Below are positions 19,806 through 42,667 of a DNA stretch of 61,724 nt, in pieces. The notes under the pieces were generated by a model. The model worked only from the letters and a program-made list of their open reading frames with translations. It was not told the DNA's origin and ran no database searches. The first letter of the stretch is position 1, and each line of letters opens with the position of its first letter. The stretch is from Bdellovibrio sp. (lineage in GTDB: Bacteria; UBA10199; 2-02-FULL-44-16; DYJF01): NCBI GenBank assembly GCA_020723205.1, contig DYJF01000002.1, positions 1 to 61,724 of the forward strand, given 5' to 3'. Both the position numbers and the translations under genes were made by a program.

Positions 19806-21059
19806 ATGAAAAAGAGTCTCGTCATTTCGAACGTCGGTCGTCTTGTAACGATGGAGCCCAAGAAAGGGCGACAGGGGCGTCTGGGTGTCATAGAGGACGC
19901 GGTTCTGCTGGTCGAAGGGGAGCATATCGCATGGTTCGGCACGCGCTCCCAATGGATGAAGAGGCGTCGTAACGTCGCCGACGAGTTCGATGTTGCCGGC
20001 GGCGTCGTCACTCCGGGTCTCATAGATTGCCACACGCATCTCGTTCATGCGGGCTCCCGCCAGAACGAATTTCTGCTCCGTTCGTACGGAAAAACATATC
20101 AGGAAATAGCTAAGGCGGGCGGCGGCATCATGTCCACCGTGCGCGATACGAGAAAGACGTCCTACGACGACCTCTACAGGATATCTTCAGAACGCGCCGA
20201 CGAATTCTTTCTTCGCGGCACCTTGGCGGTTGAAGTGAAGACCGGCTACGGGCTGGACGTTGCTACAGAACTCAAGATGCTGGATGTCATCCGCACGCTC
20301 AAGGACAATCACCCCATCAGGTTCTTCGCGACGTTTTTGGGCGCCCACGTCGTGCCGGCGGAATACAAGAAAAAACGAAAGGATTACGTCCGGCTTATCA
20401 TCGAGAAGATGATGCCCCGCGTGGCGCGGCTGGAACTTTGTAAGTTCTGCGACGTCTTCGTCGAAGATGGTGCGTTCACGTCCGACGAGGCGAGGGCGAT
20501 AGCTAAAGCTGCCGCGAAGTTCGGCATGCGCATGCGCCTGCACGTGGACCAGTTCGGCAACGGCAAAGGCGCCGAGCTCGCTTCCGAGCTCAAGGCGGTC
20601 TCGGCCGACCATCTCGATCACGTATCCGACAAGGGCATCGAGGCGCTCAGGAGATCCGGCACCGTAGCCGTTGTTCTTCCGGGAGCGACTTTTTTCACCG
20701 GCGGTAAACATTATGCCCCCGCGCGAAAGATGATTGATAAAGGTGTCAAGGTCGCTGTCTCCACAGATTATAATCCGGGTACGCATCCGTCCGTGGACCT
20801 CATAACGACCGCTACGATCGCGGTTACGCAAATGGGGCTGACACTCGACGAGGCGTGGGCGGGCATCACGGTGAACGCGGCCGCGTCGCTCGGCATCGCC
20901 TCCGATTGCGGGACTATATCCCAAGGCAAGAGGGCGGACCTCGTCGTCTTCGACGCGCCGGACGAATATTATCCCATGTACCGCTACGGCAGGAACTTGG
21001 CGGCCGCGGTGGTGAAAAAGGGCCGCGCCCAGTGGCTCGATGAATATTACAATGTATAA
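19806..21059 (+). CDS. hutI: imidazolonepropionase
   Basis: GLIDCHTHLVHAGSRQNEF...YQEIAKAGGGI...HVDQF...SADHLDH...STDYNPG matches HutI. Confidence 0.93.
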   Translation: MKKSLVISNVGRLVTMEPKKGRQGRLGVIEDAVLLVEGEHIAWFGTRSQWMKRRRNVADEFDVAGGVVTPGLIDCHTHLVHAGSRQNEFLLRSYGKTYQEIAKAGGGIMSTVRDTRKTSYDDLYRISSERADEFFLRGTLAVEVKTGYGLDVATELKMLDVIRTLKDNHPIRFFATFLGAHVVPAEYKKKRKDYVRLIIEKMMPRVARLELCKFCDVFVEDGAFTSDEARAIAKAAAKFGMRMRLHVDQFGNGKGAELASELKAVSADHLDHVSDKGIEALRRSGTVAVVLPGATFFTGGKHYAPARKMIDKGVKVAVSTDYNPGTHPSVDLITTATIAVTQMGLTLDEAWAGITVNAAASLGIASDCGTISQGKRADLVVFDAPDEYYPMYRYGRNLAAAVVKKGRAQWLDEYYNV

Positions 21060-23072: not shown

Positions 23073-23148
23073 GGGGCTGTAGCTCAGCTGGGAGAGCACG
23101 ACAATGGCATTGTCGGGGTCAGGGGTTCGAGCCCCCTCAGCTCCACCA
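23073..23148 (+). tRNA. tRNA-Ala (anticodon GGC), CCA encoded
   Basis: I folded the cloverleaf by hand: acceptor GGGGCTG/CAGCTCC with the G3:U70 Ala identity pair, D arm GCTC-AGCTGGGA-GAGC, anticodon arm CGACA-ATGGCAT-TGTCG, and T arm AGGGG-TTCGAGC-CCCCT. Confidence 0.93.
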
Positions 23149-23203: not shown

Positions 23204-23620
23204 ATGGATACGGGATCGAAGGGGAAGATCGCTGAGGTACTTGTTCTGGCAGAGTTGCTCGAGCGCGGCTTTCATGTATCCATACCATTTAAAGATTCCC
23301 GCTATGATCTTGTAGTGGAGAAAGATGGCATATTCAAAAGGCTGCAAATTAAATATGTAGGTTGTTCCGATAAAAGGCGTACGATTCCGGTCGTACTGCA
23401 CTCTTTGGCTAGGCGAGGCAGACTATTATATTCTGAAAAAGAAATAGACCACATAATAGTATATTTTGCGGAGAGAGGAGAATATTTTATTCTTCCGTAT
23501 GAAGATGTGAGCGGTAAAACCGTCACATACTTGAGATTGGAGGAAACTGGCAACAAGCAGAAAAAGGGTGTAATTTACGCCTCAAAGTATCGTAATCGAT
23601 GGGATCTGATTTTGAGTTAA
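23204..23620 (+). CDS. PD-(D/E)XK endonuclease-like protein (PF11645-like), in a low-GC islet
   Basis: GKIAEVLVLAELLERGFHVSIPFKDSRYDLVVEKDGIFKRLQIKY fits the G..aE..v...L...G..V..P..d...YDL.v.....l.R.QvK pattern. The gene is visibly AT-richer than its flanks. Confidence 0.55.
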   Translation: MDTGSKGKIAEVLVLAELLERGFHVSIPFKDSRYDLVVEKDGIFKRLQIKYVGCSDKRRTIPVVLHSLARRGRLLYSEKEIDHIIVYFAERGEYFILPYEDVSGKTVTYLRLEETGNKQKKGVIYASKYRNRWDLILS

Positions 23621-25284
23621 GTCAATTTTTTCAATACAGTTTTTTCGATGGTCTGCGCCAATTCCTTCGCCTTTTTCACAAGGTTGTCCGCGGTGGCCTT
23701 GGTCTTCGCAGCCCAGTCCTTGTCGCCGATGCCGCCTAAGTTTATCAGCACATTATAGTATGCGCCCATTGCGGCGGCGTAGCCGGTAAGCCCGGCGACA
23801 CCGGCATCCGAGAGCGAATTCTTGTTGCCGCCCTCCGCGACCTTTATTGCGAGATCAAGAGCGGTTATCGTCTTCTCAAGGACGCCGAGCGGCACAAGCG
23901 TCGCGCCCTTCGTGGCCTCTTCTATGGCATGGGCGCGCTCCTTCTTTTCCTCTTCTGTTCCCTTAGGCATCCCGAAACATGCCATCACGGTGTTGAATGA
24001 TTCGGTGTCGCGGTCGATCGCGTCTACCTGCGCGCGCATGTTCGCCTGCGCGGCGATCCCGGTCCTTTCCATCTCCTCCCATACTTTCTCATAGCCCTTC
24101 TTATTGTGCGTTAGTGCCGCGACCATGGAAGAAAGGGCCGCGGACATGGCGCCCGAGAGCGCGGCCACAGAGCCGCCGCCGGGGGCGGGGGAGGAGGATG
24201 AAAGCTCGTCCGCAAAATCCTTGACGGTCATGGATGCGAGCGGAGAGGCGCCCTCGAAGTGCGATTCGATGATCTTCTTCGCCGGGTCGAACTTCGAGAC
24301 GTCATTGAGCCCCAGCGAGCGGACCGCGGTCCTGATGAGCGCTCCCTCGGGAACGCCGCGCGTCGTCTTTTGTTTTTTCATATAATGAAGCCCCGCATCT
24401 ATCATTGCCTTTTTCGGAACGAGACCCACTATCTCGCTTCCGGTCACGCGCACGCCGAGCTTTTCCGCCTCCGTAATACACGCGTCGAAAACGTCGTGCA
24501 TGGAAGAGACGGTGAAGTCGGTGAGATTTATCGTCACCTGCGCGCAGTTGTATTCCGGTATCACCCAGCCGGTGGCGCGCACGTGCTTGAAGAGACCCGG
24601 TTCGTAGACGGTCGCGCCTTGCGCGTCCACGATCTTGTTCCCATCCTTGTCCCTTTTTATCTTTCCCTTTTCGCGGATGGCGAACGCGATCTCCTTTGCG
24701 GGCTTTACATCGGTCGTGTTCAAATTCACGTTGTAGGCAATGAGAAACTGGCGCGCGCCGATCACCGTTGCGCCGCTTTTAGCATTGAACTCGGACGGTC
24801 CGAAATCCGGCCTCCATTCCTCTTTCTTGAGCTTCTCCGGAAGGGCCTCGTATTCGCCTGTTCGTATGTCGGCCAGCGACCTCCTCGAAGGTTTCGCAGC
24901 GGCGAATTCGTAGAGATACACGGGGATCTTCAATTCCTCTCCGACGCGCTTCCCTAATCTCTTGGCAAGCTCGACGCATTCTTCCATCGTGACGTTTGCG
25001 ATGGGAACGAAGGGGCAGACGTCGGTGGCCCCCATTCTCGGATGGGCCCCTTTGTGGACGCGCATGTCGATAAGTTCGGAGGCCCTTTTTATGGCAAGAA
25101 AGGCGGCTTCGAGGACCGGTTCCGGAGATCCTGCGAAGGTGAAGACGGTCCGATTCGTGGCGAAGCCCGGGTCCATGTCCAAGAGCACAACACCCGGGAC
25201 GGTCCTTATCTCGGCCGCAATGGCCTCTAATACCCCTTTATTTTGTCCCTCGCTGAAGTTCGGAATGCACTCAATGAGCTTCAT
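23617..25284 (-). CDS. ftcD: bifunctional glutamate formimidoyltransferase / formimidoyltetrahydrofolate cyclodeaminase
   Basis: MKLIECIPNFSEGQNK... matches the formiminotransferase N and C subdomains. The C-terminal ~200 aa helical cyclodeaminase domain reads SSSPAPGGGSVAALSGAM. Confidence 0.88.
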   Translation of the reverse strand: MKLIECIPNFSEGQNKGVLEAIAAEIRTVPGVVLLDMDPGFATNRTVFTFAGSPEPVLEAAFLAIKRASELIDMRVHKGAHPRMGATDVCPFVPIANVTMEECVELAKRLGKRVGEELKIPVYLYEFAAAKPSRRSLADIRTGEYEALPEKLKKEEWRPDFGPSEFNAKSGATVIGARQFLIAYNVNLNTTDVKPAKEIAFAIREKGKIKRDKDGNKIVDAQGATVYEPGLFKHVRATGWVIPEYNCAQVTINLTDFTVSSMHDVFDACITEAEKLGVRVTGSEIVGLVPKKAMIDAGLHYMKKQKTTRGVPEGALIRTAVRSLGLNDVSKFDPAKKIIESHFEGASPLASMTVKDFADELSSSSPAPGGGSVAALSGAMSAALSSMVAALTHNKKGYEKVWEEMERTGIAAQANMRAQVDAIDRDTESFNTVMACFGMPKGTEEEKKERAHAIEEATKGATLVPLGVLEKTITALDLAIKVAEGGNKNSLSDAGVAGLTGYAAAMGAYYNVLINLGGIGDKDWAAKTKATADNLVKKAKELAQTIEKTVLKKLT

Positions 25285-25437
25285 TCAAGACCTCCCGTAT
25301 TCCGGCATTTCTAGATGAAGAAAAAAGGGAATGCAAGACCGCTATCCCCAAGTAAACACTTGCAAAATGACGTGGGGCGTTATATGCCGGACGGACAAAA
25401 ATCGTCTGGGGGAGACGTACATATTCCGGAGGGAACT

Positions 25438-28400
25438 ATGTGGAGTGCTGGACAGACGACTCTTCCACCCACTTTCAGACCGGCGTTTCTCGCGCCTCCT
25501 GTTGTCCTCCCAGTCAGAGCAGCCCTTGCCCCGATAATGCAGCAACGATCTCCACATCATTTTCCCGCAGCACCGCAATATCATCAGTCGTCATATGTGG
25601 GTGACGGAGAGGTCCTTGGTTATATCACCGGCATGAGCGCGGCCGCCCAGTGTTCCGGCTCCTCCGGTTGCGGCGGTATCTCCGGCGCCGACGACGGCGC
25701 ATCCGTTCCGCCGGGAGGAAGCATGCCTCCGCCGCCAAGGGACCCGAAAGAATTTCTCGAGAGGACGTCCACGCCTGAAGGCGAGATAGAACTTTTAAAA
25801 GAAGCCATGGCGGGAAAGCCGAACGGTATCTCGTGGACGGAGATGATCCGGTTGGGAAGGGCGGGCGATCCGAGTTACGCGGAGCTTGCAAAAAGGCCGC
25901 TGGTCGCGGCATTGGGTTCCATGGTCACGACTGTCCTTCAGCCGAGATCGGACAACTTCACGCCGCCCGAAAGGACGCCGTGGGGCGGAAAGCGCATAGT
26001 CGAGGACGTCAAGGCGGGTCTGGGTTTTTCGCATCAATATAAGATCGTAGGTGAGTCGTGGGAGATTTCGAGCCATGAAAGTTTTCCCAACGTCTTCGCG
26101 CTCGAGTACGCCGGTCAGGCCTTGGAGGTAACGATCTCCGTCTTGAGCAGGATCTTTTCGGAGGAGATGTACGGCCGCAGTATCACATCCGCGCATGACG
26201 AGGGGCTTCCTTTCCTCGTCAAGCTCGTGAACTCCGGCAGCTGGCTGCCGTATAAGGATGATCTCAAGAAGATGTTCGGCTGGCTCGACGGCCGGGAATA
26301 CGCCGCCGGCTGGCGAAGGTCCTTGGATGTGGACTGCTCCTTCACGGAGATGCTCTCATGGGACCATCACGCTCTGCACCGGGGGATCGCGCGCCTCAAG
26401 ACGATGATGCTTCAGCGCATCCACTCGACGAGCGAAAGACACCCGCAGGCGCCTATCTGGCGACAGAGTCTCAACGTGTCCTCACTTGAGAACCTGAAGG
26501 GCAGGAGCACGGACGAACTGATAAACGCGCTGCGTCTCCTTTCCACGATGCAGCAGGCGGGTGGTTTGGCGGAAGAGGCCGGCGAGACGGATCATCTCGC
26601 CCTCTTGCACATCATTCATCAGAAAATGCTCACAAAGAACCTCTCGGTGCAGGTCCATCCGCCCAAGGGTTACGACAGGTTGAGCCCGGGCGAACATTCA
26701 AAGAGCGAGGCGTGGATCATTCTGGATTCAGAGCCGGGGGCCGGCATCTATCTGGGCATCAAGGAAGGGGTCACGAAGGAGCAGTTTGCCTCCGCGTTGA
26801 GGGCGGGAGAGGATGTCACGAACCTTCTCAATTTCATTCAGGTGAAGAGGGGGGACGTGTTCTTCATCCCGGCGGGCACGATGCACGCGATAGGCGCAGG
26901 TGTTCTTCTCATGGAACCGCAGGAGACCTCCGAAACGACCTACCGCGTCTATGATTACGGCCGGCTTGACGCCAACAAGAGACCGCGCGAACTTAAGATC
27001 GACAGTGCCATGGCGGTGACCGAATGGGGCGGGAAGAGGGGGGAAGACGCGGTCCAGTGGTTCAGGAGGACGCCGGAGGTCATGAACGCAGGGAATGCAG
27101 GCACCGCACGAGTGGAACGTGTGCTGAACGAGACCTTCTTCGAGACGGCCCGCCTCACGTTCGGGCGCGGCGCCAGTCATTTGAGTGATTCGGACGGGAG
27201 CATCAAGGCGTACACGGTAGTTGAAGGCGCGGTGGAGGTCTACAAGGGGGACGAGGGATCTCCCGTCGGCATATATCAGAAGGGGCAATCATTTATAATT
27301 CCCGTGGCCATGGGGCCGTACAGAATGACAGGCGTGACCGACGGAGCGACTGTATATGAGACCACGGTCTTCTCGCTCGACGGGGCGGGAAGGGCGAAGC
27401 CGACCTCATCGATATCCGAGATCATCGCAAAGCAGGCGCCGGAGATGCAGTCGAGGAACGCGCAATTCGTTGCAAGACCGTCGCGCGGGCACATCTTGAT
27501 GATCAACCCGCAGGGATACGCCGGTCCCAAGGTTCCGATGTCGGCGCCGGACACGGGCGGGCAGATCACCTACCTGCACAGCAAGGCAAGGATGCTCGCC
27601 AAGATGGGCTACAAGGTCAGTATTGTCACACGCTCCTTCAAGCCGGACGAGCAATATGCATCGTACGGCGACAGGATGGGGGTGGATTTCCTGTCAGGCA
27701 CCGGAGACATGGTCCGCTACGTCTTCGTCCCGGGCCTGCAGGTTGAGAACGCCCCCTTCTACAGAAAAGAGGAGAGGCATTTCTATTCCGACCTGCCATC
27801 GATGGCAAGGAACTTGGCGCTTTTCGTGGATGACGAAGCGAGAACGCAGAAGGTCAATCCCTGGGACTATTTTCTCTACGTAGATACTCATTACGTTGAC
27901 GGCGGCAAAGTGGGGCAGCGGTTGGTCAGAATATGGGACCACATGTTCGTAAATAAATATTTCAAGGAACGCTTCAAGGCGGTCCTAGGAATGCGGTCGG
28001 AGCAGGATCCCTTTGCCGACGACAATATCATGGGGAATCTTCCCTACTACTTCGGAAAGCGCGTTATGGCGGCGTGGTACGACGAGATGGGGTCGCAGCC
28101 GTCATACGGTTCCGCGCTGAACATGCAGGATGTGCTAAGGTGGGCCGCGACAAAGCTCGAATGGCCGCCGGACAGGGTTGCAAGGTTGCTTTCCAACTCG
28201 ACGGGCGCCGCCATCGGCAACGGCAGGCACATGTTACCGGCGAAGTTTGACGCCTACACGATCGGTTTTCGTCTGCTGGAAACCGCGGGCGAACTGGGCC
28301 GTCTGTTCCGCTATATAAAGAACCTGAACCGGCACGTCTGGACGCCGCATTCTCTGGGGCAGCTCAAAGAAGACCGGATGATAGCGGATAACCTCATATT

Positions 28401-30333
28401 GAAGGACCCGGCGGCCTTCCATGCGCTCAATTTCGCCCAGCGTATCGCCTCGGAGCGGGAGCTATTGAGCGGTTCCCTAAGCGGCACCGATCTTTCAGGA
28501 GAGCTGATACAGGGCATGCCTCCGGCGAAGGTCGTAGTGTTCACATCGGTGGAGATCGCAGAGGCCGCGATGCGGCAGGGGATGCCCGCTACGAAACCGA
28601 CGATAAGCTTCGTACCCGGCACGGACCCGCAGCAGTATCACCAGCGCGACAGCGTCAATCATCCCGACATACAGCTTCTGTTCAACGATCTAAGGGAGAG
28701 GGGCGTTGTTCCCGCTGAAATACTCGATGCGCTCATGCAGAACCCGCAGAACTTCAACGTGATAGTCGAGGCGGGCCGCATGGATATGTCGAAGCGAAAA
28801 CACCTGCTCATCGAGGCGATGGCCTCTCTGCCGCCCAACACCGTCATGTTAATAACCGGCGGGAGGGACAGGGCCGGCATCTATGACGGTCTGAAGGGCA
28901 GGATCGAGCGCTTGGGCCTTGAGAACCGTGTCTTCCTGCTTGGTATGGTCCCAGAAGAAGTAATGGGACCTCTAATGAGCATCCCCCACGGCGAGGCCGA
29001 CGACCAGTTTCGCCTTGCGATGGTTGCGAGCGCGTCCGGGATGGAGGGATGGGGAATGGCGGTGCAGGATGGCACTAGAGGCGGAATGCCGCTGGTGGGC
29101 TCCGACAGGATACCTTATGCGGTGCATCTCTCAAGGGCGGCCAACGCCGCCGTCGTGGTGCCGAGCGGAGGCAGCGAGACGGAGGAGGTGGCGCGTTACG
29201 CGGAGGCGCTAAGGTCCATGATAGACAATCCGCCTGCCGCCCGCGACACGGCCACGAGGTCCTTAAAGATAGCGCAGCAATATGAATGGAAGACCCTGAC
29301 GGAGAACGCGATGGCGCAGCTGACCGGTCTTCTCTTCATGTCGGGGGACGTGTCGCAGACTATGGTGGCGGGGGCGGCGATCGCCGTCGGCGGTTCCAAG
29401 CACGTCGTGATATTTGCCGGCGGTTCCGGCACCAGGTTCAGGCCCTACAGCTCGGACGAGGTGCCCAAGCAGTTCCTGCCCATCACGCATCAGGATAGAA
29501 CGATGCTACAGGTCACGGCCGAGAGATTCAAGGGGTTCGTGCCTGAAGAGAACATATGGATATCGACGAACGCCCGTCATGTCGATCTTGTCGGCGAGCA
29601 GCTTCCGAATGTGCCGAGGAGCAATGTGATCGGCGAACCGGTAGCTCGCAACACTGCGCCCGCAATCGCATCGATAATGTACTGGATCGCAAGACAGGAC
29701 CCGGAGGCGACTGTCCTTTTGGTCCCCGCCGACCACTTCATCGCTTCGACGGAGACGCTCTTGGGGCAGGTCGGCGAGGCGTATGAATACGCCGCCGCAA
29801 CGGGTGCACTGCTCACGTTCGGCATCCCGCCGACATGGGCCTCTCCCGAGTACGGTTACATTGAACGGGGCGGCTCGGATGCGGCCTACACGGACATCTA
29901 TCGCGTCAGACGTTTTGTGGAGAAACCCGACGCCAAAAAAGCGCAGACATATCTCGACGGCGGCAACTTTCTTTGGAACAGCGGCATGTTCGTCTGGAGC
30001 GCCAAGTCGTTCCTTCAGAACCTTGCCCACTATCAGCCGCTCATGTACGCGGGCCTTGAGGCGATCTACGGAAGAAGCTCCGTGGAGGCGTCCCTCACGT
30101 CGGAGATGATGGAAAGGTTCTTCACACCGCTTCATCCGATATCGATCGACTATGCGTTGATGGAGCCGGCGTCGGTCGACAACCGCGTCGTCGTGCTGCC
30201 GTTCAAGAGCGATTGGTCGGACGTCGGGACGTGGCAGAGCTTGGACCGGATGGTCAGGGAGGGCAAGGCCGCGCCGCCCGAGGTGGTCCTCGAGCACATG
30301 AGGGCCAAGCTTGCGGCGGGGGGCGGTCAATAG
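25438..30333 (+). CDS. giant tri-domain fusion: Pro-rich leader + type I phosphomannose isomerase + sucrose-phosphate-synthase-like GT4 glycosyltransferase + mannose-1-phosphate guanylyltransferase
   Basis: PMI (about 25954-27369): TPWGGKRIV, LSVQVHP, SKSEAWIIL, GTMHAIGAG, TYRVYDYGR. GT4 (about 27487-29334): APDTGGQITY, TPHSLG, GMEGWGMAV. NTP-transferase (about 29395-30333): VIFAGGSGTRFRPYS..PKQFL, GEPVARNTAPAI. The open frame begins at ATG 25315. I prefer ATG 25438 because GGAGGG lies 4 nt upstream and it leaves room for the divergent ftcD promoter. Confidence 0.8.
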   Translation: MWSAGQTTLPPTFRPAFLAPPVVLPVRAALAPIMQQRSPHHFPAAPQYHQSSYVGDGEVLGYITGMSAAAQCSGSSGCGGISGADDGASVPPGGSMPPPPRDPKEFLERTSTPEGEIELLKEAMAGKPNGISWTEMIRLGRAGDPSYAELAKRPLVAALGSMVTTVLQPRSDNFTPPERTPWGGKRIVEDVKAGLGFSHQYKIVGESWEISSHESFPNVFALEYAGQALEVTISVLSRIFSEEMYGRSITSAHDEGLPFLVKLVNSGSWLPYKDDLKKMFGWLDGREYAAGWRRSLDVDCSFTEMLSWDHHALHRGIARLKTMMLQRIHSTSERHPQAPIWRQSLNVSSLENLKGRSTDELINALRLLSTMQQAGGLAEEAGETDHLALLHIIHQKMLTKNLSVQVHPPKGYDRLSPGEHSKSEAWIILDSEPGAGIYLGIKEGVTKEQFASALRAGEDVTNLLNFIQVKRGDVFFIPAGTMHAIGAGVLLMEPQETSETTYRVYDYGRLDANKRPRELKIDSAMAVTEWGGKRGEDAVQWFRRTPEVMNAGNAGTARVERVLNETFFETARLTFGRGASHLSDSDGSIKAYTVVEGAVEVYKGDEGSPVGIYQKGQSFIIPVAMGPYRMTGVTDGATVYETTVFSLDGAGRAKPTSSISEIIAKQAPEMQSRNAQFVARPSRGHILMINPQGYAGPKVPMSAPDTGGQITYLHSKARMLAKMGYKVSIVTRSFKPDEQYASYGDRMGVDFLSGTGDMVRYVFVPGLQVENAPFYRKEERHFYSDLPSMARNLALFVDDEARTQKVNPWDYFLYVDTHYVDGGKVGQRLVRIWDHMFVNKYFKERFKAVLGMRSEQDPFADDNIMGNLPYYFGKRVMAAWYDEMGSQPSYGSALNMQDVLRWAATKLEWPPDRVARLLSNSTGAAIGNGRHMLPAKFDAYTIGFRLLETAGELGRLFRYIKNLNRHVWTPHSLGQLKEDRMIADNLILKDPAAFHALNFAQRIASERELLSGSLSGTDLSGELIQGMPPAKVVVFTSVEIAEAAMRQGMPATKPTISFVPGTDPQQYHQRDSVNHPDIQLLFNDLRERGVVPAEILDALMQNPQNFNVIVEAGRMDMSKRKHLLIEAMASLPPNTVMLITGGRDRAGIYDGLKGRIERLGLENRVFLLGMVPEEVMGPLMSIPHGEADDQFRLAMVASASGMEGWGMAVQDGTRGGMPLVGSDRIPYAVHLSRAANAAVVVPSGGSETEEVARYAEALRSMIDNPPAARDTATRSLKIAQQYEWKTLTENAMAQLTGLLFMSGDVSQTMVAGAAIAVGGSKHVVIFAGGSGTRFRPYSSDEVPKQFLPITHQDRTMLQVTAERFKGFVPEENIWISTNARHVDLVGEQLPNVPRSNVIGEPVARNTAPAIASIMYWIARQDPEATVLLVPADHFIASTETLLGQVGEAYEYAAATGALLTFGIPPTWASPEYGYIERGGSDAAYTDIYRVRRFVEKPDAKKAQTYLDGGNFLWNSGMFVWSAKSFLQNLAHYQPLMYAGLEAIYGRSSVEASLTSEMMERFFTPLHPISIDYALMEPASVDNRVVVLPFKSDWSDVGTWQSLDRMVREGKAAPPEVVLEHMRAKLAAGGGQ

Positions 30334-30339
30334 GGCCGC

Positions 30340-31686
30340 TTATTTCGAGTTGTGATATTTCTCGAGCTGCGGAGCCCTTTTCTTCCACATCAGCGCGAAG
30401 AGCGCCGTTCCGATACCGGCCGCGATCGTGAAGAACAGAAAGCCGCCGTTCCAACCCCATCTGTCAACTATGAGGCCGGTGCCGAGCCCCGAAAGGGCGC
30501 TCCCAACATAACCGAACATTCCGGTGATGCCGGTCGCCGTAGATGCGGCCTTCTTTGAAGCGAAATCGGCTGCTGCAACCGGCACAAGGAGCTGCGGGCC
30601 GTAGACCAGAATGCCGGCGCAGATAAGTATGCAGGCGTCGAGGTACGGATTATTGTTCGGGGCCATCCACAGCATGATCACGGCTATCATGAGGAGGAAC
30701 ATGCTGACGGCAGCCATCGGTCCGCGTCTGCCTTTAAAGACCTTGTCGGATATCCAGCCGGCCCCGATCGCCCCTATCATCCCCGCAAGTTCGAACCCCG
30801 CGGTCTTGAAGCCGGCGCTTGCGATGGATGAACCCCTGGTCTCCACGAGGAAGGTCGGCGCCCAGTCCCTGATGCCTATCCTCACGACGTAGACGAATAC
30901 GTTCGCGAACGCCACGAGCCATACGAACTTGTTCTTGAGGATGTACTTGAGAAAGATCTCTTTGAAGGAATTCGCCTGATCCTCGTTTGGATCGGTTATG
31001 TGCGTTTCGCCCCTGTGTTCCTCGATGGGAGGAAGGCCTATGGATTGCGGCGTGTCGCGGAGGCGGTTGACTAGGAAGAAGGAGCAGGCGATCGCTATGA
31101 ACGCGGGGATGTAGAAGGCGCCGCGCCAGCCGAAATGCGGTATGAGAACCGAACCGGCGAGTATCATGATGCCCGCGGAGCCGATCTGGTGCGCCGTGCT
31201 CTGAAGCCCCCATTTGGTGCCGAGCTCCGTCGGGCTGTACCAGTGTGTCAAGAGACGCACGCTGGCGGGCATCCCGTATGACTGGAACCACGCGTTCAAG
31301 AGCCATAGTATCGCGAAGGTCGTCACACCGGAGCTCAATCCGAAGAAGAAGTTGACCACGCCGGCGCAAAAAAGACCTATAGCCATCAGATATCTTGAAT
31401 TGGCCCTGTCGGCGAGCACGCCGTTCGCGAACTTTCCAAAACCGTAAACGACCGAAAAGAGGGTCAAGACAAGACCTAAGTCGGTCTTTGTATATCCCAT
31501 GTCCTTGAGAAGGGCAGGCATTGCGATCGAGAAGTTGGCGCGCACAAAATAATATACCGCGTAGCCGATGATCATCGAATAGAGGACGCGCACCCTGTAA
31601 TGTTTATAGAGCCGCTGGACCTCTGCCGCGTCGGTTATTGGCTTTGCGTGAGGCGCGACCTTCAGGAACGAGAACGGGTTTTTCAT
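30340..31686 (-). CDS. MFS transporter, organophosphate:Pi antiporter (UhpC/GlpT/UhpT) family, copy 1
   Basis: YRVRVLYSMIIGYAVYYFVRANFSIAMPALL..GYTKTDLGLVLTLFSVVYGFGKFANGVLADR matches the OPA family. It has 12-TM-type hydrophobicity. I chose the start at MKNPF, which has a GGGGG RBS. Confidence 0.85.
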   Translation of the reverse strand: MKNPFSFLKVAPHAKPITDAAEVQRLYKHYRVRVLYSMIIGYAVYYFVRANFSIAMPALLKDMGYTKTDLGLVLTLFSVVYGFGKFANGVLADRANSRYLMAIGLFCAGVVNFFFGLSSGVTTFAILWLLNAWFQSYGMPASVRLLTHWYSPTELGTKWGLQSTAHQIGSAGIMILAGSVLIPHFGWRGAFYIPAFIAIACSFFLVNRLRDTPQSIGLPPIEEHRGETHITDPNEDQANSFKEIFLKYILKNKFVWLVAFANVFVYVVRIGIRDWAPTFLVETRGSSIASAGFKTAGFELAGMIGAIGAGWISDKVFKGRRGPMAAVSMFLLMIAVIMLWMAPNNNPYLDACILICAGILVYGPQLLVPVAAADFASKKAASTATGITGMFGYVGSALSGLGTGLIVDRWGWNGGFLFFTIAAGIGTALFALMWKKRAPQLEKYHNSK

Positions 31687-31820
31687 GTTAAACCCCCTTG
31701 AGAAGTGAATTGGTCGTATCCTATCCCTTACCCCGCTTATAAAATCAAGGCACAAAGACGCGGCGGCGCTAAAAAATCCCTTGAAAGTGCGCCTGTTATG
31801 GGCTAGAGGGTTTGGCCATT

Positions 31821-32735
31821 ATGCATACAAAGAACAGCATCTACGCAGTGATCCTCGCGGGCGGCGAAGGGACGCGCTTTGTCCCCTACAGCACCCCCGA
31901 AAGGCCCAAGCAGTTCCTCCACATCACGCACGGCGACCGGACGATGATACAAAAGACCTTCGACCGCATCGCGGCGCTCGTGGGCCCGGAGCGGATATAC
32001 GTCTCTACGAACGACCGCTACTGCGGGCTCGTTCAGGAACAGTTGCCGGATATCCCTCAAGAGAACATAATAGGCGAGCCGCTGAAGAAGAACACGGCGC
32101 CCGCCATCGCGCTTGTATCCTGCCTCATTCACAGAAAGAACCCCGACGCTGTAACTCTTTTCGTACCGGCCGATCACTACGTTTCCGATACCGAAGGCGC
32201 GGTCTCTTCCTATCTCAAGGCGACCGACCTCGCGGCAAAGGAGGACACGCTCGTGACGTTCGGGATCATGCCCACCTTCCCTTCGCCCGATTACGGCTAT
32301 ATAAGGAAGGGCGGCGCGTTCTTGAGCGGCGCGAACAAAGTGGAGAAGTTCGTTGAAAAACCCTCCGTCGAAAAGGCCAAAGGTTATTTGAAGGACGGCG
32401 GCTACTACTGGAACAGCGGAATGTTCGCGTGGCGCACGAAAACGCTCATTGATGCGCTGGAAAGACACATGCCGAAGCTCGCGTCCGATCTCAAAACGTT
32501 AAGGACGGACCGGAACGGCGCGCCCGACCGCGAATGGATGGGCGAATTCTTCACCAACGTTGAAAGCATATCCATAGATTACGGCGTGATGGAAAAGGCG
32601 TCGAACGTCGTCGTCTTCCCGTTCGGCTCGCCATGGTCCGACGTCGGCACATGGCAGGGGCTTGAAGATTTGGCAAAGAGGTTCGATCTTGAGCTGCCGA
32701 CGGTCGTGACAGGGTATCTCAAGAACCGCAACTGA
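31821..32735 (+). CDS. mannose-1-phosphate guanylyltransferase (stand-alone, no cupin domain)
   Basis: YAVILAGGEGTRFVPYSTPERPKQFLHI...GEPLKKNTAPAIAL...FGIMPTFPSPDYGYI matches GMP. It is a paralog of the C-terminal domain of the 25438 fusion. Confidence 0.85.
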   Translation: MHTKNSIYAVILAGGEGTRFVPYSTPERPKQFLHITHGDRTMIQKTFDRIAALVGPERIYVSTNDRYCGLVQEQLPDIPQENIIGEPLKKNTAPAIALVSCLIHRKNPDAVTLFVPADHYVSDTEGAVSSYLKATDLAAKEDTLVTFGIMPTFPSPDYGYIRKGGAFLSGANKVEKFVEKPSVEKAKGYLKDGGYYWNSGMFAWRTKTLIDALERHMPKLASDLKTLRTDRNGAPDREWMGEFFTNVESISIDYGVMEKASNVVVFPFGSPWSDVGTWQGLEDLAKRFDLELPTVVTGYLKNRN

Positions 32736-34110
32736 CGTTCATCCGGCCGAGAAGCGTTTTCGTCATGTGTTCCCACGTGAAGTAGGGGATGGTTATCTCG
32801 TAGGCCGCTTCGGCCATTTTTTCCCGTTTATCATTGTCCCTAAGGAGCGTTTTCAGCGCATGGGCGAAACCTTCCGTCCTGCCCGCCGGTATCACCGCGC
32901 CGCCTTTGCCCCATTTGATGGCGATCGAACCGTCTTTAGCACAAAGGTGTTCGACCGCGTGCTCCTTCGCCAGATATTCGGTGGCGAATGGAATGAGGTT
33001 AGATGATATGGTGGCGCGCTTGCAGGCCGCCGCTTCCTGAACCGACATGCCGAATCCCTCCATCTCGGAGGGGGAGAGGTAGACGGTCGCGGAGGCGAAG
33101 AGCTCCGCCATGAGATCCTCCGGCACCATGCCTACATAGACGACGCTGTCTCTTATTGCGAGCGATTCGACAAGAGACGATATTTCGCCGTAGATCTCCT
33201 TGGCCTGCGGGTTGATGCGCAGAAGGAGCATGGTATCCGGATGGTCCTTGAGCGCCTCCGCGAACGCATTTACGACGATGTCCTTGCGCTTCGTGCGGTC
33301 GGTCCGGCTCATCTCGAGCACTATGGTCTTTCCCTTCACGTGCGGACCCGTGAGCGGGTCGGTCGCTGCGAGGAAGTTGCGTACGTTAGATAGGTCCTTT
33401 TCCTTGCCGACGGGATAGGTGATCCGCGTGTCGATACACGGGGGAAGGAAGAGCTCCGGTTCGCGGTCGTAGCAGTCCTTCGAGACGCGTGATATGTCGC
33501 TTGAGGTGGATGCAACGGCGTCTATATTAGGAAGGATCTCTTTTTCATATGCGATACGTTCTTCAAAACGAAGAGGCGCGACGACCTCCTTTGGTTTTCC
33601 AACGTAATTCTCCTGCTTGAGCGCTCCCAAGGAGTGCGGGACCCAGACGTGCTTTGCCTTGAGCCCCATGCGTTCCCGGACAATGTTCGCCAGAAGGGCG
33701 GCATCCCAGTAGTGCGAGATGATGAGATCGACCGGTATCTTTTCCGCCTTGAGGAGGTTGCACGCGAATCGGGCCTCCTCTTCGAGGACCGCGCGCGTCA
33801 GGTCCTCCTTCCTGATGAACTTGTTCCCGCCTCCTTCGAGATATACGATGCGCGAGCAGGCGTCCTTGTATCTCGCGCCCGTCTGCATATCTCCCGTGAC
33901 CGGATCGGCGAATCCGCCCCTGTTCCACGTCGTGACGCGAAAACCCAGCTTTACCAGCGTGTCGGAAAGGGAGCGGACGTACTGGTTCTGTCCGCCGGTG
34001 TCCGTGAGCCCCGCGCGAACCTCCCACGTGTGGACGCCGTGATTCGTTAACATGAGTATGTGCGGGCGTTTCGAACCTAAGAATTCAGCGCGCAGATCTT
34101 TGTCGTTCAT
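32719..34110 (-). CDS. sucrose-phosphate-synthase / mannosylfructose-phosphate-synthase-like GT4 glycosyltransferase
   Basis: HILMLTNHGVHTWEVRAGLTDTGGQNQYV, VPHSLGALK and SEMEGFGMSVQEAAA match SPS-like GT4. The acceptor and donor are not determinable from sequence. Confidence 0.8.
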   Translation of the reverse strand: MNDKDLRAEFLGSKRPHILMLTNHGVHTWEVRAGLTDTGGQNQYVRSLSDTLVKLGFRVTTWNRGGFADPVTGDMQTGARYKDACSRIVYLEGGGNKFIRKEDLTRAVLEEEARFACNLLKAEKIPVDLIISHYWDAALLANIVRERMGLKAKHVWVPHSLGALKQENYVGKPKEVVAPLRFEERIAYEKEILPNIDAVASTSSDISRVSKDCYDREPELFLPPCIDTRITYPVGKEKDLSNVRNFLAATDPLTGPHVKGKTIVLEMSRTDRTKRKDIVVNAFAEALKDHPDTMLLLRINPQAKEIYGEISSLVESLAIRDSVVYVGMVPEDLMAELFASATVYLSPSEMEGFGMSVQEAAACKRATISSNLIPFATEYLAKEHAVEHLCAKDGSIAIKWGKGGAVIPAGRTEGFAHALKTLLRDNDKREKMAEAAYEITIPYFTWEHMTKTLLGRMNVSCGS

Positions 34111-34124: not shown

Positions 34125-37100
34125 TCACCTTTGCGATCCGGCGGCAGCGTCGGCCACCGAGGTTCCGCTCTGTGCCGCGGGGGCGTGCGGCGGGAAGTTG
34201 AAGAGCCCCTCGAATATCTTCATAAAATCGGGATGGTTCTCGTGTCCCACTACGCGTTCGTTGAACTCTTCGGGCGGCGTCGCAAGCTGTTTCATTAGTT
34301 GAACTTTATTCTTTCTTCGCGACCTGTCCGCGGGCGGCGTTAAAAGCTCGATGTCCGTTCCAAGAAGGTCCAGCGTCCACGGATTGCGGTCAAAAAACTC
34401 CCTTATAAGTTCGCCCGTTTCAGTATTGTTCCGCGCCAGCGCCAGCGTCATGAGGAGCGGCTGCAGTGCTTTGTACGCGTTGACGTCCGCGGCGTAATGG
34501 AGGATCATCTCGAGAAGGACCTCCAGTTGAGCCTTGTCTATGCGTTCGTCGTATCTCCCCTCCATCATCTGTTGAAGGTTCGCGTACATATCCGTGTTCG
34601 TCGATGAGGGATAATCACCGGGTTTTACGACCTGCTTTACAGCCCATAGCGGCAGGAATCTGTCGCGCAGGCGGTTGTGCGGGAGCAATAGATGCATAGG
34701 ATGCATGCGCTGTCCGCTCATCGCGAACGTCGTGAAGACGGTCCTGAAATGTTCGGCCTTCTCTTTCATTAGCTTCGCGATCGATGCATCGGCTGCCTCG
34801 GCGCTTATCAGGCCGCTCGACAGTTGCTGCTTGACGTCCGCTATCTCCGCGTTCGTTTCCCTGACCTTGCCGGCCGCCTTTTCAAGCATCTCTCTGATCG
34901 AGGCGCGTTCCCACTTCGTCCCGCTGGGTTCGGGCCATGTCAAGGTAGAAACGGCGTTGCCGGAGACCATATTCGGGAGCGACATCGCGGCTTGCGACAG
35001 CCATTCGGTGTCGACTCCCATGCGCGCCCTTGCCGCAGATCCTATGACGTCGTAGATCGGGATTCGGCCCGTCCTGTTCCTTGCGTATGGCATCGTGAAC
35101 GCATAGAGGCCTCCAACGACGGTTTCCATGACCCTTCTGTCGATGCGCTGCCCCACGGAATCCTGCCATGCTTCCGAGGCCAAGGTCCTTATCGGTATCT
35201 TGCCTTTAAGGAGACCGGAAAGACCCAGTGTGAAGGGAAGGTTGCCTATGGCCGTAGCCACTCCTACCAAACATGCGTCGGCGATGGTTACGATCTCCTC
35301 TCGTTTGGGCTGCATCTCGGCGCTGATGGGAGAGGTGAGGCCGTTCACCATGGCAATGGCCATGGCCATGCTCTTGTTCGAAAGAGACAGGGCCCTAATG
35401 AAATTCCACACGGTTTGTTTCTTGGTCTTTCCCTTTTCCCAGCGGACCATCTTGGTGATGAGCATCATGAAGATGGCCTCGGTGGAGACGATGGATGCGC
35501 GCAGGAAACCGTAGAGCCATTCCAATTGCGTCGGGTCGGGAGCGGAGAGCGGAACGCCCTTTTTATACCAAAGGCGCAGGTCAGCGGATAAGCCGATGGC
35601 AGCCGGCAGGAACATCCACGAAACCTTATCGAGATGCCATCTTGTTTCGGGGATCAACATGTGGGCTAGGAACATCGCTCCTGCCGCCCGTGAGTAGGTA
35701 AAGTAGAGACCGTTCAGGACCTCGATGGGGGTGCTGTTGAAAAGCTGCATACCGATATCGGCGCCAAGCATAGCGAGTCCCGGCGCTGCATATGGCAGGA
35801 CCTTGTCAGTTTCTTTTATCCATCCCTCGAGGACGGCGGCCATCAGCGGATTGTCTTCGCGGAGCTTCGGTGTCAGCATGGTCCTTGCGTAGAGGTTCGC
35901 TGCGGCAACGCCGCCAGAGCCATATGTGTATCCGTGATAAAGGAAGTTGGCTATGGCCGTCGGATCGTAAGCGGGGTTCGCGGGGTCGGCCAGAGGCCCG
36001 TATGTGCCGGGGTTCGTCACAGTGGAGACCGCGTCCGATATCCAGCCGCCGTATATGCCGTATCCACGCTGAACTGTTTCGATACCCTTAACAATGGAGT
36101 CGTGGCCCTGTTCCAGAAAATATGCCGGCGCTATCCATGCGGCGGCGTCGAGCCCCGTCTTCATTGCAAGACGGCCTATGTCCTTCACTGCCTGCGCGTT
36201 CGAGCGTTCCGGCTCGAGGCCGTAGACATAAGCGTCATGCGCCTCTTCTGTAGTAAGGCCGTTGTAGAGACGGTATCCCAACGACATGAGAAGGGCGCCT
36301 GCGAGCGGCAGCATGAAACCGTGGTCGCCGCCGGAGAGGACGTTCAACGCCTCGCCGCCAAATAGCCCCAAGCCGCCGACGAGCATCGATTGAAAGACGC
36401 CGGGGGAGTGCGCGTTGGCTATTCCCTCCTTCAGGGCGCGGATGACGGCGCGCTGCCTCATCTCCCGCTGAATGTCCTGCACCTGCATTATCTTGCCATT
36501 GTGGTCGACGAAGCGGGAGATCAACTCGTTTTCTATGATGGAGGTGGCCGCATCTGAATCCTTAAGATAGTGATTGGTCGTCAGCCATTCGGCCCTCTTG
36601 CGCGCATCGTGCCACATGCCGAGGCGGGCCATGAGAATGATGATGTTGGCCGCATATTGAGCCACGATGTCGTTCTTTTTCGGGTCGTCAAGTTTTGCGA
36701 GGATCTTGCTTGGGTACGTCAGTTCGTTGAAGGACTCTCTGATGGCGGCGGTGAGGCGGCGGCGCTCGGCGCGGTTGCGGCGCGTGACGGCGAGGGTGAG
36801 CTGATGCGCCATGATCTCAACGCTCAAGAGGTGCGTGTAATACTGCGCCTCGAGCCGTGTATTTTCGTCCTCGATACTATTATCTATCCACGCCTGTGTC
36901 TTTTTTACCATGTCGAGCGCGAAACCATAGCGATGTATGGTGGGGGTCTTCGCCTCGGTCGTCTGCTCCATCACCTTGTAGGCGCGGAGCAGCTCAAGCT
37001 TCACGTAATTCAATGCTTCGGCGTTCGATGCGGTGTTCGCGTGAAGATGGCCGTGTATCCATTTGAGGCCGGAGGCGATGGTCGAAGTTCCCGACAAGCC

Positions 37101-37592
37101 GAAAACGGCGGTGGCAGCATCGACCAAGATGTCGGCGCCGTTCTCTAAATAGCTGTAGACTGGAGCGGCTTCTGCATCGGCGGCGGGTGAAACGGGCGTT
37201 TCGAGTCCGTTAAGAATTTCCCGCGACGAATCTACCGCCGCCTGCGCGTCGTTGGAAGCGAGCGCGTTGCGGGCCTTTCTGTAATTGCTACCGATGTTCC
37301 AGAGCGTATGGGTGGGATGGTCGGCGAGAAATACGACGCCTGATTCCGTCTCAACTTCCGCGCGTCCGGCCGCAGTATCATCCGACGGCTGTATGTAACC
37401 CAGAACCTCCCCGTCTGCGGATGCGGGCGCACCGTGAAGAACGGATCCCGCCTGAGCCGGCGTAATTATTCTAGGGGTCATTGAACCGGGTAACTGCGCA
37501 GGTATTGTAAGTCGTCCTGTATAGAGAGGGCCTTGCTGTAGCATTGCGATCGGGAACAACGGCATCGAGGATGAAAGTGGTGCGCCGCTCAT
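34125..37592 (-). CDS. giant orphan protein A (1155 aa): Pro-rich leader, helical N-domain, ~400 aa hydrophobic Gly/Ala-rich core, helical C-domain
   Basis: It is a long uninterrupted ORF with a strong RBS (GAGGAGG 6 nt upstream of the ATG). Hydrophobic segments include LVGGLGLFGGEAL, FMLPLAGALLMSLGY, MFLPAAIGLSA and MAMAIAMVNGL. I recognised no family. Confidence 0.75.
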   Translation of the reverse strand: MSGAPLSSSMPLFPIAMLQQGPLYTGRLTIPAQLPGSMTPRIITPAQAGSVLHGAPASADGEVLGYIQPSDDTAAGRAEVETESGVVFLADHPTHTLWNIGSNYRKARNALASNDAQAAVDSSREILNGLETPVSPAADAEAAPVYSYLENGADILVDAATAVFGLSGTSTIASGLKWIHGHLHANTASNAEALNYVKLELLRAYKVMEQTTEAKTPTIHRYGFALDMVKKTQAWIDNSIEDENTRLEAQYYTHLLSVEIMAHQLTLAVTRRNRAERRRLTAAIRESFNELTYPSKILAKLDDPKKNDIVAQYAANIIILMARLGMWHDARKRAEWLTTNHYLKDSDAATSIIENELISRFVDHNGKIMQVQDIQREMRQRAVIRALKEGIANAHSPGVFQSMLVGGLGLFGGEALNVLSGGDHGFMLPLAGALLMSLGYRLYNGLTTEEAHDAYVYGLEPERSNAQAVKDIGRLAMKTGLDAAAWIAPAYFLEQGHDSIVKGIETVQRGYGIYGGWISDAVSTVTNPGTYGPLADPANPAYDPTAIANFLYHGYTYGSGGVAAANLYARTMLTPKLREDNPLMAAVLEGWIKETDKVLPYAAPGLAMLGADIGMQLFNSTPIEVLNGLYFTYSRAAGAMFLAHMLIPETRWHLDKVSWMFLPAAIGLSADLRLWYKKGVPLSAPDPTQLEWLYGFLRASIVSTEAIFMMLITKMVRWEKGKTKKQTVWNFIRALSLSNKSMAMAIAMVNGLTSPISAEMQPKREEIVTIADACLVGVATAIGNLPFTLGLSGLLKGKIPIRTLASEAWQDSVGQRIDRRVMETVVGGLYAFTMPYARNRTGRIPIYDVIGSAARARMGVDTEWLSQAAMSLPNMVSGNAVSTLTWPEPSGTKWERASIREMLEKAAGKVRETNAEIADVKQQLSSGLISAEAADASIAKLMKEKAEHFRTVFTTFAMSGQRMHPMHLLLPHNRLRDRFLPLWAVKQVVKPGDYPSSTNTDMYANLQQMMEGRYDERIDKAQLEVLLEMILHYAADVNAYKALQPLLMTLALARNNTETGELIREFFDRNPWTLDLLGTDIELLTPPADRSRRKNKVQLMKQLATPPEEFNERVVGHENHPDFMKIFEGLFNFPPHAPAAQSGTSVADAAAGSQR

Positions 37593-37990
37593 CTATCGCC
37601 TCCTCTTCGGGAGATTGATCTGGTTGGATTTTACGGGCGAGAACGCTTTAATCATCTAGCACCCGAGCATTTGCGGACATCTCCGCCGTGAAAGTCCCTA
37701 ATTAACAGCGTTTCATAAAAGTGCGGAAACCCTATTTCATACCCCCCTTATCTGTCAAGGACAAATGGGCAAAAAACCAAGTTTTAACGGATAATTAGCT
37801 CATTCTTAATATTTTGCCGATAGCGCCCATTTAAACAGTAGCCCGCACTGCTTTTGAAAACCCACAACTTTTATGGAATTCTGACGATACTATAGAGGGA
37901 GAAGCTGCGGCCGATATAACTTGAAATGATTAGAGAACTCTATTAGCTGTACACAAAAATGTCCGTTCGGAGACGTACTTGGTCTGGGGG

Positions 37991-42636: not shown

Positions 42637-42667
42637 TCCGTTCGGAGAAATGGCATAGTTCCACCCT

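Follow-up and report, generated by a model that had tools for sequence, protein, structure and literature searches.

A predicted polypeptide joining a class I phosphomannose isomerase, a sucrose-phosphate-synthase-like glycosyltransferase and a mannose-1-phosphate guanylyltransferase

Background

Proteins of the ManC/AlgA/XanB type (TIGR01479) carry two enzymes of the GDP-mannose (GDP-Man) route in one chain, an N-terminal mannose-1-phosphate guanylyltransferase (GMP) and a C-terminal phosphomannose isomerase (PMI) that is a type II cupin. Sucrose-phosphate synthase (SPS), with structures from H. orenii (2r60) and T. elongatus (TeSPS, 6kih), and MshA (3c48/3c4q), the mycothiol GlcNAc-inositol-phosphate synthase, belong to glycosyltransferase family 4 (GT4). 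Mannosylfructose-phosphate synthase (MFPS, EC 2.4.1.246) of Agrobacterium is an SPS-family enzyme that uses GDP-Man and fructose 6-phosphate (Fru-6-P). The subject of this analysis is a gene in a 61,724-nt stretch of DNA (the window; contig DYJF01000002.1, assembly GCA_020723205.1, Bdellovibrio sp.) that encodes a PMI, an SPS-like GT4 and a GMP in one frame. The fusion is a new domain architecture with an uncharacterised GT4 clade, made from known kinds of enzyme.

The N-terminal domain of ManC/AlgA/XanB is homologous to the GMP of the fusion. The fusion differs in that its PMI comes first and is of class I (1qwr/1zx5, the Bacillus/Archaeoglobus type), and in that about 650 aa of glycosyltransferase lie between PMI and GMP. 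The GT4 domain has in common with the SPS structures the GT-B fold, the GGQ loop, the His of HSLG, the Lys/Arg pair for the acceptor phosphate, the R...K motif and the catalytic Glu. It differs from them by an identity of approximately 15% (structure-based) or 23–30% (local sequence), by an insertion of ~145 aa, by an Asp in the E-x7-E motif, by a score far under the TIGR02472 cut-off, and by having PMI and GMP as fusion partners and not a sucrose-phosphate-phosphatase-like domain. MshA is similar in profile score, in fold rank and in the columns that bind phosphate, but it has a GGM loop and a UDP-GlcNAc donor, and the neighbourhood of the fusion has no genes for inositol-phosphate synthase or mycothiol. 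The resemblance to MFPS is in the proposed chemistry, GDP-Man plus Fru-6-P. The sequence likeness is weak, with E values around 1e-4 (7e-5 to 5e-4) against remote matches that JGI labelled MFPS automatically (P0068, P0070), and MFPS serves as a working analogy only.

The compatible-solute route to mannosylglucosylglycerate (GpgS, MggA, MggB), where a first transferase makes a glycosyl-phospho-acceptor, mannose is added by a GDP-Man-dependent enzyme and the product is completed by a phosphatase (PMC3736172), is alike in logic only; its enzyme families are unrelated to those of the fusion. Neither a phosphoglycerate-specific enzyme nor a dedicated phosphatase was identified with the fusion cluster.

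Domain architecture of the fusion gene

The open reading frame (ORF) at positions 25315–30333 on the plus strand has 1672 codons and no internal stop, and the likely product is 1631 aa. This agrees with a first-pass annotation of the same DNA, made from the sequence alone, which had described one uninterrupted polypeptide of ~1630–1672 aa with the same start and with the domains in the order PMI, GT4, nucleotidyltransferase; the order is borne out by Pfam, NCBIfam and PDB sequence matches. Residues are numbered here along the 1631-aa product, except for the ranges of profile and PDB matches, which follow the 1672-codon ORF. Translation most likely starts at ATG 25438 and not at the ORF start, because a GGAGGG Shine-Dalgarno sequence is present 5 nt upstream, the homologues all begin with M-x-[SC]-[AGS]-G-Q at the equivalent position, and the divergent formiminotransferase-cyclodeaminase (FTCD) gene starts at 25284, which leaves a control region of 153 nt 5' of the fusion gene. 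No riboswitch or other RNA was found upstream of the fusion (an Rfam scan of the window gave one tRNA only), and no sigma-70-like promoter was found in positions 25100–25700.

The PMI region has matches to TIGR00218 (6e-18, ORF 498–673) and to PDB 1qwr (5e-23, ORF 440–566). These place it in class I, the ManA kind, as had been proposed, and not with the type II cupin of ManC/AlgA/XanB. The motifs that had been quoted for it are all present: TPWGG (25975–25989), SVQVHP (26644–26661), SKSEAW (26695–26715), MHAIG (26875–26895) and YDYGR (26938–26964). The putative zinc ligands Q405, H407, E424 and H483 and the active-site residues K262 and R503, presumably the equivalents of these positions in established PMI structures, are invariant in alignments A1 and A4 and align with 1qwr and 1zx5. 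The AF2 model (pLDDT 79) has a double-cupin fold. The top Foldseek matches are 1qwr (4.7e-18), 1zx5 (TM-score on the target 0.81), the S. typhimurium PMI and 1pmi. The model is weak (pLDDT < 50) in the strands around WGG and GESWE.

An insertion of ~139 aa (26227–26643), modelled as a helical subdomain, lies between PFLVKL and SVQVHP, at a point that corresponds to the gap between residues 94 and 97 of the 1zx5 chain. It is shorter in the stand-alone relatives P0072, P0074 and P0080. An internal duplication in the insertion (WR.SL.V twice) was considered and rejected, as the same score was reached by 63 of 1000 shuffles and is not significant. The same class I PMI module, preceded by the same small N-domain, is found at 39–41% identity in fusions with phosphomannomutase (PMM), i.e., P0101 (1072 aa), L006:1434-5024 (1196 aa) and P0005–P0007. 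In these the partner is PMM and not GT4-GMP, and P0101 has no PMI insertion. A domain of the same PMI clade is also present outside the window at residues 2939–3170 of a 4372-aa protein from the representative search (P0171), and at the C-terminus of three proteins of ~770–790 aa (P0077, P0135, P0136), behind long regions of no assigned family.

In the GT4 region, PF00534 matches the C-terminal half (1.3e-9, ORF 1144–1332), and the N-terminal half (ORF 725–874) matches SPS 2r60 and TIGR02472. A profile of 62 GT4 family sequences (A3), used for the PDB search and for column conservation, finds SPS 2r60 at 1e-60, MshA 3c48 at 1.6e-60 and TeSPS 6kih at 7.7e-60, with PimA/PimB' (3okc, 2gej) at ~1e-22. 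The AF2 model has a pLDDT of 91 and a pTM of 0.90, and the first three Foldseek ranks are 2r60, 3c4q and 6kih. The earlier description of this domain as SPS-like is supported by its best matches, MshA being equally close. The key residues are GGQ 707–709, K777, Y819, H971, S972, K977, R1002, R1114, K1119, E1203 and D1211; the R...K donor-phosphate motif (R1114, K1119) and the catalytic E1203 of the E-x7-E motif are in place. The insertion of ~145 aa is helical and is found at 27892–28326, between the HYVD strand and NRHVWTPHSLG. A family of 587-aa GT4 proteins (P0017–P0062) was rejected as orthologous to the fused GT4, since tblastn puts it nearer to the second GT4 of the window (GT4b, see below), and was kept only to deepen the alignment.

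The GMP domain matches PF00483 (5.6e-37 at ORF 1364–1643, 128 bits against a cut-off of 21) and PDB 2x5s (1.2e-46). Motifs that define the nucleotidyltransferase family are G-G-x-G-x-R...PKQF, EKP and NSGMF. The fused domain has GGSGTRFRP, PKQF, RNTAPAI, VPADH, FVEKP, WNSGMF, SIDYALME and WSDVGTW. A match to TIGR01479 (2.9e-66) covers only positions 4–278 of the 467 in that profile. The protein is not a type II PMI/GMP (TIGR01479, NF012004), as the chain ends ~30 aa past the nucleotidyltransferase domain, at the ORF stop. It has no ManC-type C-terminal cupin. Its order is opposite to that of ManC/AlgA/XanB, as first described. By these alignments, each of the three domains is shown to have the predicted catalytic and ligand-binding residues of its family in place.

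Rarity of the architecture

Three further proteins share this layout in a word-indexed search across 5.8 billion clusters: P0002 (1673 aa, from a 161-kb contig in GCA_975961005.1), P0003 (1667 aa, GCA_043822785.1, which has only the name 'sugar phosphate nucleotidyltransferase' at NCBI) and P0004 (a partial sequence of 1015 aa). They are 47–52% identical to the fusion along the whole length, with invariant residues through both junctions; at junction 1, the flanking KPTSS...I..Q..E.Q..N..FV is invariant in four homologues (alignment A1). The junction positions that had been named for checking (27370–27490 and 29335–29395) coincide with low-confidence linkers in the structure models. In an exhaustive phmmer search with the N-domain, PMI and GT4 residues as query against 1.84 billion representatives at 50% identity, the only chains to combine PMI and GT4 are those of P0003 and P0004. 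The architecture is represented by four sequences in a collection of ~15 billion proteins and by two 50%-identity clusters among the 1.84e9 representatives, and literature searches on it or on mannosylfructose enzymology gave nothing relevant. The suggestion that it was essentially undescribed has stood.

The window is evidently a metagenome-assembled contig, and the same modules are separate genes in a related locus, L033, so the join of three adjacent genes might stem from a chimeric contig or from a frameshift introduced in sequencing. Against this, the 1630–1670-aa architecture is found in three other independent assemblies at ~50% identity and with conserved junction residues. The unfused order in L033 (GT4, PMI, GMP, GT4) also differs from the fused order, and a lost stop codon cannot explain the fusion. 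On this comparison an artefact is effectively refuted, with a negligible probability left to it. The architecture is therefore real; it is limited to a single narrow lineage and is old enough for its members to have diverged to 50% identity. The RpoA protein of the window is 70–78% identical to proteins of metagenome-assembled genomes (MAGs) labelled Pseudomonadota, Deltaproteobacteria or Myxococcales bacterium.

Gene neighbourhood and the sugar donor

The coordinates of the fusion and of the neighbouring cluster are given in Table 1. Behind the fusion are convergent genes for an antiporter of the major facilitator superfamily (MFS) in the organophosphate:phosphate antiporter (OPA) family, for GT4b, and for a large protein of 1155 aa, an arrangement that is also found in L001 and L002, where the upstream genes differ. 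The cluster was surveyed with tblastn of the window proteins against all fetched loci and with Pfam scans. Seven loci, drawn from at least five lineages, have the three genes next to the long GT4. An MFS gene with 59–77% identity to that of the window is likewise adjacent in L001, L002, L006, L007, L033 and L035. GT4b has the GGQ, PHSLG and R...ER motifs, and its orthologues, 52–66% identical, are beside the MFS gene in six other loci.

Different states of fusion are found in these loci. L035 (P0010) has a GT4-GMP fusion, the MFS gene and GT4b. L006, from a MAG labelled Nitrospirales, has two fusions, a PMI-PMM of 1196 aa and a GT4-GMP of 1266 aa, together with MFS, GT4b, GalT and the large protein. 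In L033 (the contig of P0009) the modules are unfused, with GT4 (685 aa), N-domain plus PMI (585 aa), GMP (309 aa), a further GT4 (687 aa), GT4b, MFS and the large protein. Synteny between this locus and the window extends over a ribosomal operon, AhpC, FTCD and then the cluster. L007, from a MAG labelled Myxococcales, has the large protein, GT4b, MFS and GT4. All four activities that lead from Fru-6-P to a mannoside are thus found fused in differing pairings across relatives. The comparison shows the fusion of the window to be a lineage-specific consolidation of an operon.

The long SPS-like GT4, and not GT4b, is the fusion partner of GMP in three architectures. This repeated fusion, together with the conserved neighbourhood, is strong circumstantial evidence that GDP-Man is the donor of the GT4. 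The link to a mannosyl product that had been proposed from the one gene is strengthened by the GT4-GMP fusion and the paired PMI-PMM and GT4-GMP fusions of relatives. An alternative is that the GT4 uses UDP- or ADP-glucose in the manner of SPS or MshA, that PMI and GMP feed another mannosyltransferase such as GT4b, or general envelope synthesis, and that the fusion is a sign of co-regulation only. The nearest solved relatives do use UDP/ADP-glucose (SPS) or UDP-GlcNAc (MshA), two paralogues have no GMP nearby, and GalT, a galactose-1-phosphate uridylyltransferase and thus a source of UDP-hexose, is found next to the cluster in two lineages (L001:21747-22757 and L006:16337-17395; TIGR00209, above cut-off). 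The choice of fusion partner argues against this alternative, as does the existence of a GDP-Man-using member of the SPS family in Agrobacterium, and it is considered unlikely. The presence of GalT with two clusters hints at a UDP-hexose donor for GT4b.

The acceptor of the glycosyltransferase

In TeSPS, R105 and R178 bind the phosphate of sucrose 6-phosphate, and H158 and E331 are essential (PMC7264703). In an HMM alignment that allows for an offset of 3 residues between the numbering of that paper and the chain sequence, R105, R178, H158 and E331 fall on K777, R1002, H971 and E1203 of the fusion. These four are invariant or nearly so among the 62 family members, and K777, Y819, S972 and R1002 are invariant. 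The latter four columns, the acceptor-phosphate pocket, align with K78, Y110, T134 and R154 of MshA, which are presumably the residues that bind inositol phosphate. A phosphorylated sugar is the probable acceptor, since the residues by which both SPS and MshA bind the phosphate of their acceptors are retained in the GT4.

The best guess for this acceptor is a hexose 6-phosphate, either Fru-6-P or mannose 6-phosphate (Man-6-P). A hexose 6-phosphate is favoured by the GGQ loop, which is as in SPS and not GGM as in MshA, by Fru-6-P and Man-6-P being the substrate and product of the PMI, and by the occurrence of MFPS within the SPS family. That the acceptor is Fru-6-P specifically, i.e., that the reaction is like that of MFPS, is by analogy a possible assignment to be held tentatively. 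In either case the PMI may serve the acceptor pool as much as the donor.

A membrane-bound phosphate acceptor in the synthesis of envelope glycolipids or glycans, such as the phospholipid head group mannosylated by PimA/PimB-like enzymes (e.g., phosphatidylinositol), has also to be considered, since PimA and PimB' are GDP-Man-dependent GT4s that the family profile does match, and the large uncharacterised protein of the cluster has hydrophobic segments. SPS and MshA, whose acceptors are soluble sugar phosphates, are nevertheless nearer to the profile than the Pim enzymes are, by some 40 orders of magnitude. In addition, the conserved core has no lipid-synthesis or flippase genes, and its transport partner is an antiporter for soluble organophosphates. 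A lipid acceptor is decidedly improbable on these grounds.

Proposed pathway

The preferred explanation is a cytoplasmic fusion of three enzymes that would transfer mannose from GDP-Man to a phosphorylated acceptor, and a probability of about 0.68 is assigned to it. The fusion would have arisen by merger of neighbouring operon genes in an uncultivated deltaproteobacteria/Myxococcota-like lineage. In this scheme the PMI would turn Fru-6-P into Man-6-P, a PMM encoded elsewhere would yield mannose 1-phosphate (Man-1-P), and the GMP domain would form GDP-Man. The GT4, a retaining enzyme, would then move alpha-mannose from GDP-Man to the phosphorylated acceptor in its SPS/MshA-like pocket. The resulting phospho-glycoside would probably be elaborated by GT4b, with a second sugar possibly from UDP-hexose, and the antiporter would supply sugar phosphate or move the product. 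The benefit of the fusion would be co-localisation, co-expression and fixed stoichiometry.

The first-pass annotation had GDP-Man supplied on both sides of the transferase. This is not supported as stated, as PMI and GMP catalyse the first and third steps and the second step, that of PMM, is outside the chain and the window. The substrate channelling that had been suggested is only partly supported in its direct form, and a closed channel cannot exist, because Man-6-P must leave the protein and Man-1-P must return. Co-localisation of the enzymes is a likely benefit.

Several points weigh against the three-enzyme mannosyl transfer proposed here. The fused PMI is under the curated cut-offs of TIGR00218 (65 vs 116 bits) and PF21621 (21 vs 27 bits); the low TIGR00218 score is largely because the 139-aa insertion splits the match. 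The GMP has 224 bits against a TIGR01479 cut-off of 373, because that model also spans the cupin domain. The second acidic residue of the GT4 E-x7-E motif is Asp1211 and not Glu, and the score to the SPS equivalog TIGR02472 is 24 bits with a cut-off of 576; the domain is not classed as SPS proper. As the GT4 profile is equally near to SPS and to MshA (1e-60 each), homology cannot fix the acceptor. A GMP gene is missing from the surroundings of two close GT4 paralogues, those of L005 and L007. No PMM is found in the fusion chain or in the 61.7-kb window, where the GDP-Man route is therefore incomplete. There is no phosphatase in the conserved core cluster, and the sole HAD gene (45353..46033) is a generic class IA member in the neighbouring paralogous operon. 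The conserved tip and long disordered tail at the N-terminus (see below) are unexplained for a plain cytoplasmic enzyme.

A catabolic direction has also to be considered, since OPA antiporters usually import organophosphates and the reactions of SuSy/SPS-family (SuSy, sucrose synthase) GT4s, GMP and PMI are, from established enzymology, reversible. In such a scheme a phospho-mannoside imported by the antiporter would be cleaved by the GT4 with GDP, as by sucrose synthase, and the GDP-Man would pass through GMP (by pyrophosphorolysis), PMM and PMI to Fru-6-P. Two GT4s and an extra GMP copy fit synthesis better, and we know of no precedent for such a system running in the catabolic direction, which counts against it; its probability is very small.

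The N-terminal tail and helical domain

The tip M-x-[SC]-[AGS]-G-Q-[TVL] (25438..25460) is kept in P0002, P0003 and P0004 and in the stand-alone long GT4 paralogues P0009 and L005:9857, and in both groups it is followed by 60–100 variable, disordered residues. The 8-mer DGEVLGYI is found in the tail of the fusion (25603..25626, plus strand) and in the 1155-aa neighbour (37392..37415, minus strand), ~56–67 residues from the N-terminus in each; 19 of the 24 nt are identical and the differences are all synonymous. Neither the window nor the fetched loci contain another copy of it, and it is missing from the L001 and L002 orthologues. The five-helix N-domain that comes after the tail always precedes a PMI of the fusion's clade, as in the stand-alone PMIs P0072, P0074 and P0080 and in the PMI-PMM fusion P0101, and also in tblastn matches. 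The N-tail, the N-domain and the PMI and GT4 insertions have no Pfam match at E values up to 1.

One reading of the tip, the disordered tail and the 8-mer is that they form a secretion or assembly signal, by which the enzyme would be exported to a prey or host cell or targeted to a complex. The conservation of the tip next to a tail that varies, the presence of the 8-mer at the same N-terminal distance in two proteins with synonymous differences only, and the FlhA/SctV- and FlhB/SctU-family genes of these genomes are consistent with it. However, a signal peptide is lacking, GTP and the sugar phosphates that serve as substrates are cytoplasmic, the genes around the L005 paralogue do not form a secretion cluster and the 8-mer is not retained in L001 and L002. 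Export or special targeting is thus very unlikely. A link to type III secretion was also considered, from Yop-YscD_cpl and FHIPEP matches near the L005 GT4 paralogue, and was rejected; the rest of that locus consists of FHA, PEGA and TPR signalling genes, an orphan FHIPEP, SecA, aconitase and housekeeping genes.

A wider reading combines these elements with the cytoplasmic mannosyl transfer preferred above. The two SPS-like GT4s, the GDP-Man supply, the antiporter and the ~1100-aa protein would form an undescribed, self-contained pathway to a new mannosylated sugar phosphate or derived oligosaccharide, perhaps exchanged across the membrane, and the N-terminal tip and the 8-mer would assemble or target the enzymes to a common partner. 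It would be present in uncultivated deltaproteobacteria/Myxococcota-, Nitrospirales- and related lineages. As a whole this reading is doubtful.

Table 1. Positions of the fusion, its parts and the adjoining cluster genes in the window
Feature	Positions	Strand	Extent	Basis
Shine-Dalgarno GGAGGG	25428..25433	+	5 nt 5' of proposed ATG 25438	read directly from sequence
Fusion coding sequence, incl. stop (start most likely)	25438..30333	+	1631 aa	ORF list, homologue N-termini (P0002, P0003, P0004), regex scan
N-terminal extension: conserved tip MWSAGQT, then ~85 aa variable, Pro/Ser/Gly-rich	25438..25704	+	residues 1-89	alignment A1
Small five-helix N-domain	25705..25929	+	residues 90-164	AF2 helices 15-74, pLDDT ~90
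Class I PMI, both cupin halves	25930..27369	+	residues ~165-643	TIGR00218, PF21621, 1qwr/1zx5 alignments
PMI-to-GT4 linker (junction 1)	27370..27405	+		low-pLDDT stretch 558-571 of PMI model
Retaining GT-B glycosyltransferase, GT4, SPS/MshA branch	27406..29337	+	residues ~657-1300	profile A3 against PDB, AF2, Foldseek
GT4-to-GMP linker (junction 2), variable in sequence	29338..29400	+		A1 columns ~1380-1404, end of GT4 model
ManC-type GMP, no C-terminal cupin	29401..30330	+	residues ~1322-1631	PF00483, TIGR01479, 2x5s
OPA-family MFS antiporter (UhpC/GlpT/PgtP-like), convergent with fusion	30340..31755	-		NF008661 1e-129, TIGR00881 5e-122
Stand-alone second GMP paralogue	31812..32735	+	307 aa	PF00483 7e-41
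GT4b, second SPS/MshA-like GT4, without insertion	32719..34110	-	463 aa	TIGR03449 4e-23, TIGR02472 3e-20
Large protein of unknown function	34125..37592	-	1155 aa	conserved cluster member
Paralogue of large protein	37979..41869	+	~1290 aa

Other genes of the window

The stand-alone GMP paralogue shares 46% identity with the fused GMP domain and 65% with its stand-alone counterpart in the unfused L033 cluster. Its last 17 nt overlap the convergent gene for GT4b, and L001 and L002 are without this copy.

The 1155-aa protein has no Pfam, NCBIfam or PDB match, and neither has its paralogue of ~1290 aa. Homologues with 25–32% identity are in the same position in L001, L002, L006 and L007, and one is also in the L033 cluster. 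The genes for the 1155-aa protein and its paralogue are divergent, and each heads an operon with an OPA-family MFS gene. A polytopic membrane protein was considered for the 1155-aa neighbour and rejected, as there is only one strongly hydrophobic 19-mer per protein. Downstream of the paralogue is a packed run of genes (41876..46033, plus strand), i.e., a 245-aa protein of unknown function, a second OPA MFS (42668..44032), a glycerol-1-phosphate-dehydrogenase-like gene (43861..45375; NF002022 2.7e-60, below cut-off) and the HAD-IA phosphatase. A glycerol-1-phosphate-dehydrogenase-like gene beside a phosphate-ester transporter is unusual in a bacterium; the run is not by the cluster in L001 or L002.

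Upstream of the fusion are histidine-utilisation genes, namely urocanase (14379..16127), an imidazolonepropionase-like amidohydrolase (19806..21059) and FTCD (23617..25284, minus strand), together with tRNA-Ala(GGC) (23073..23148). The unfused cluster of L033 likewise has FTCD as its upstream neighbour. Positions 56767..60917 contain genes for an FHA-GGDEF protein and for a PEGA-domain Ser/Thr kinase, and an orphan export gene of the FlhB/YscU family (59850..60917), near which no other flagellar or injectisome genes are found.

Conclusions

Gene fusions are among the most reliable clues, from sequence only, to enzymes that work together. Three fusion states (PMI-GT4-GMP, GT4-GMP and PMI-PMM) and an unfused syntenic state tie an uncharacterised SPS-like GT4 clade to GDP-Man. 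No principle is overturned, because fusions of pathway enzymes are common. Annotations such as 'glycosyltransferase family 1' or 'hypothetical' give way to a pathway that can be tested with few candidate substrates and that would offer a functional setting for the conserved antiporter and the ~1100-aa protein of unknown function. Should the product prove to be a mannosyl hexose phosphate, the sparsely documented metabolites of the mannosylfructose type would be extended to new phyla, and the single polypeptide would be a catalyst of interest for the enzymatic synthesis of mannosides.

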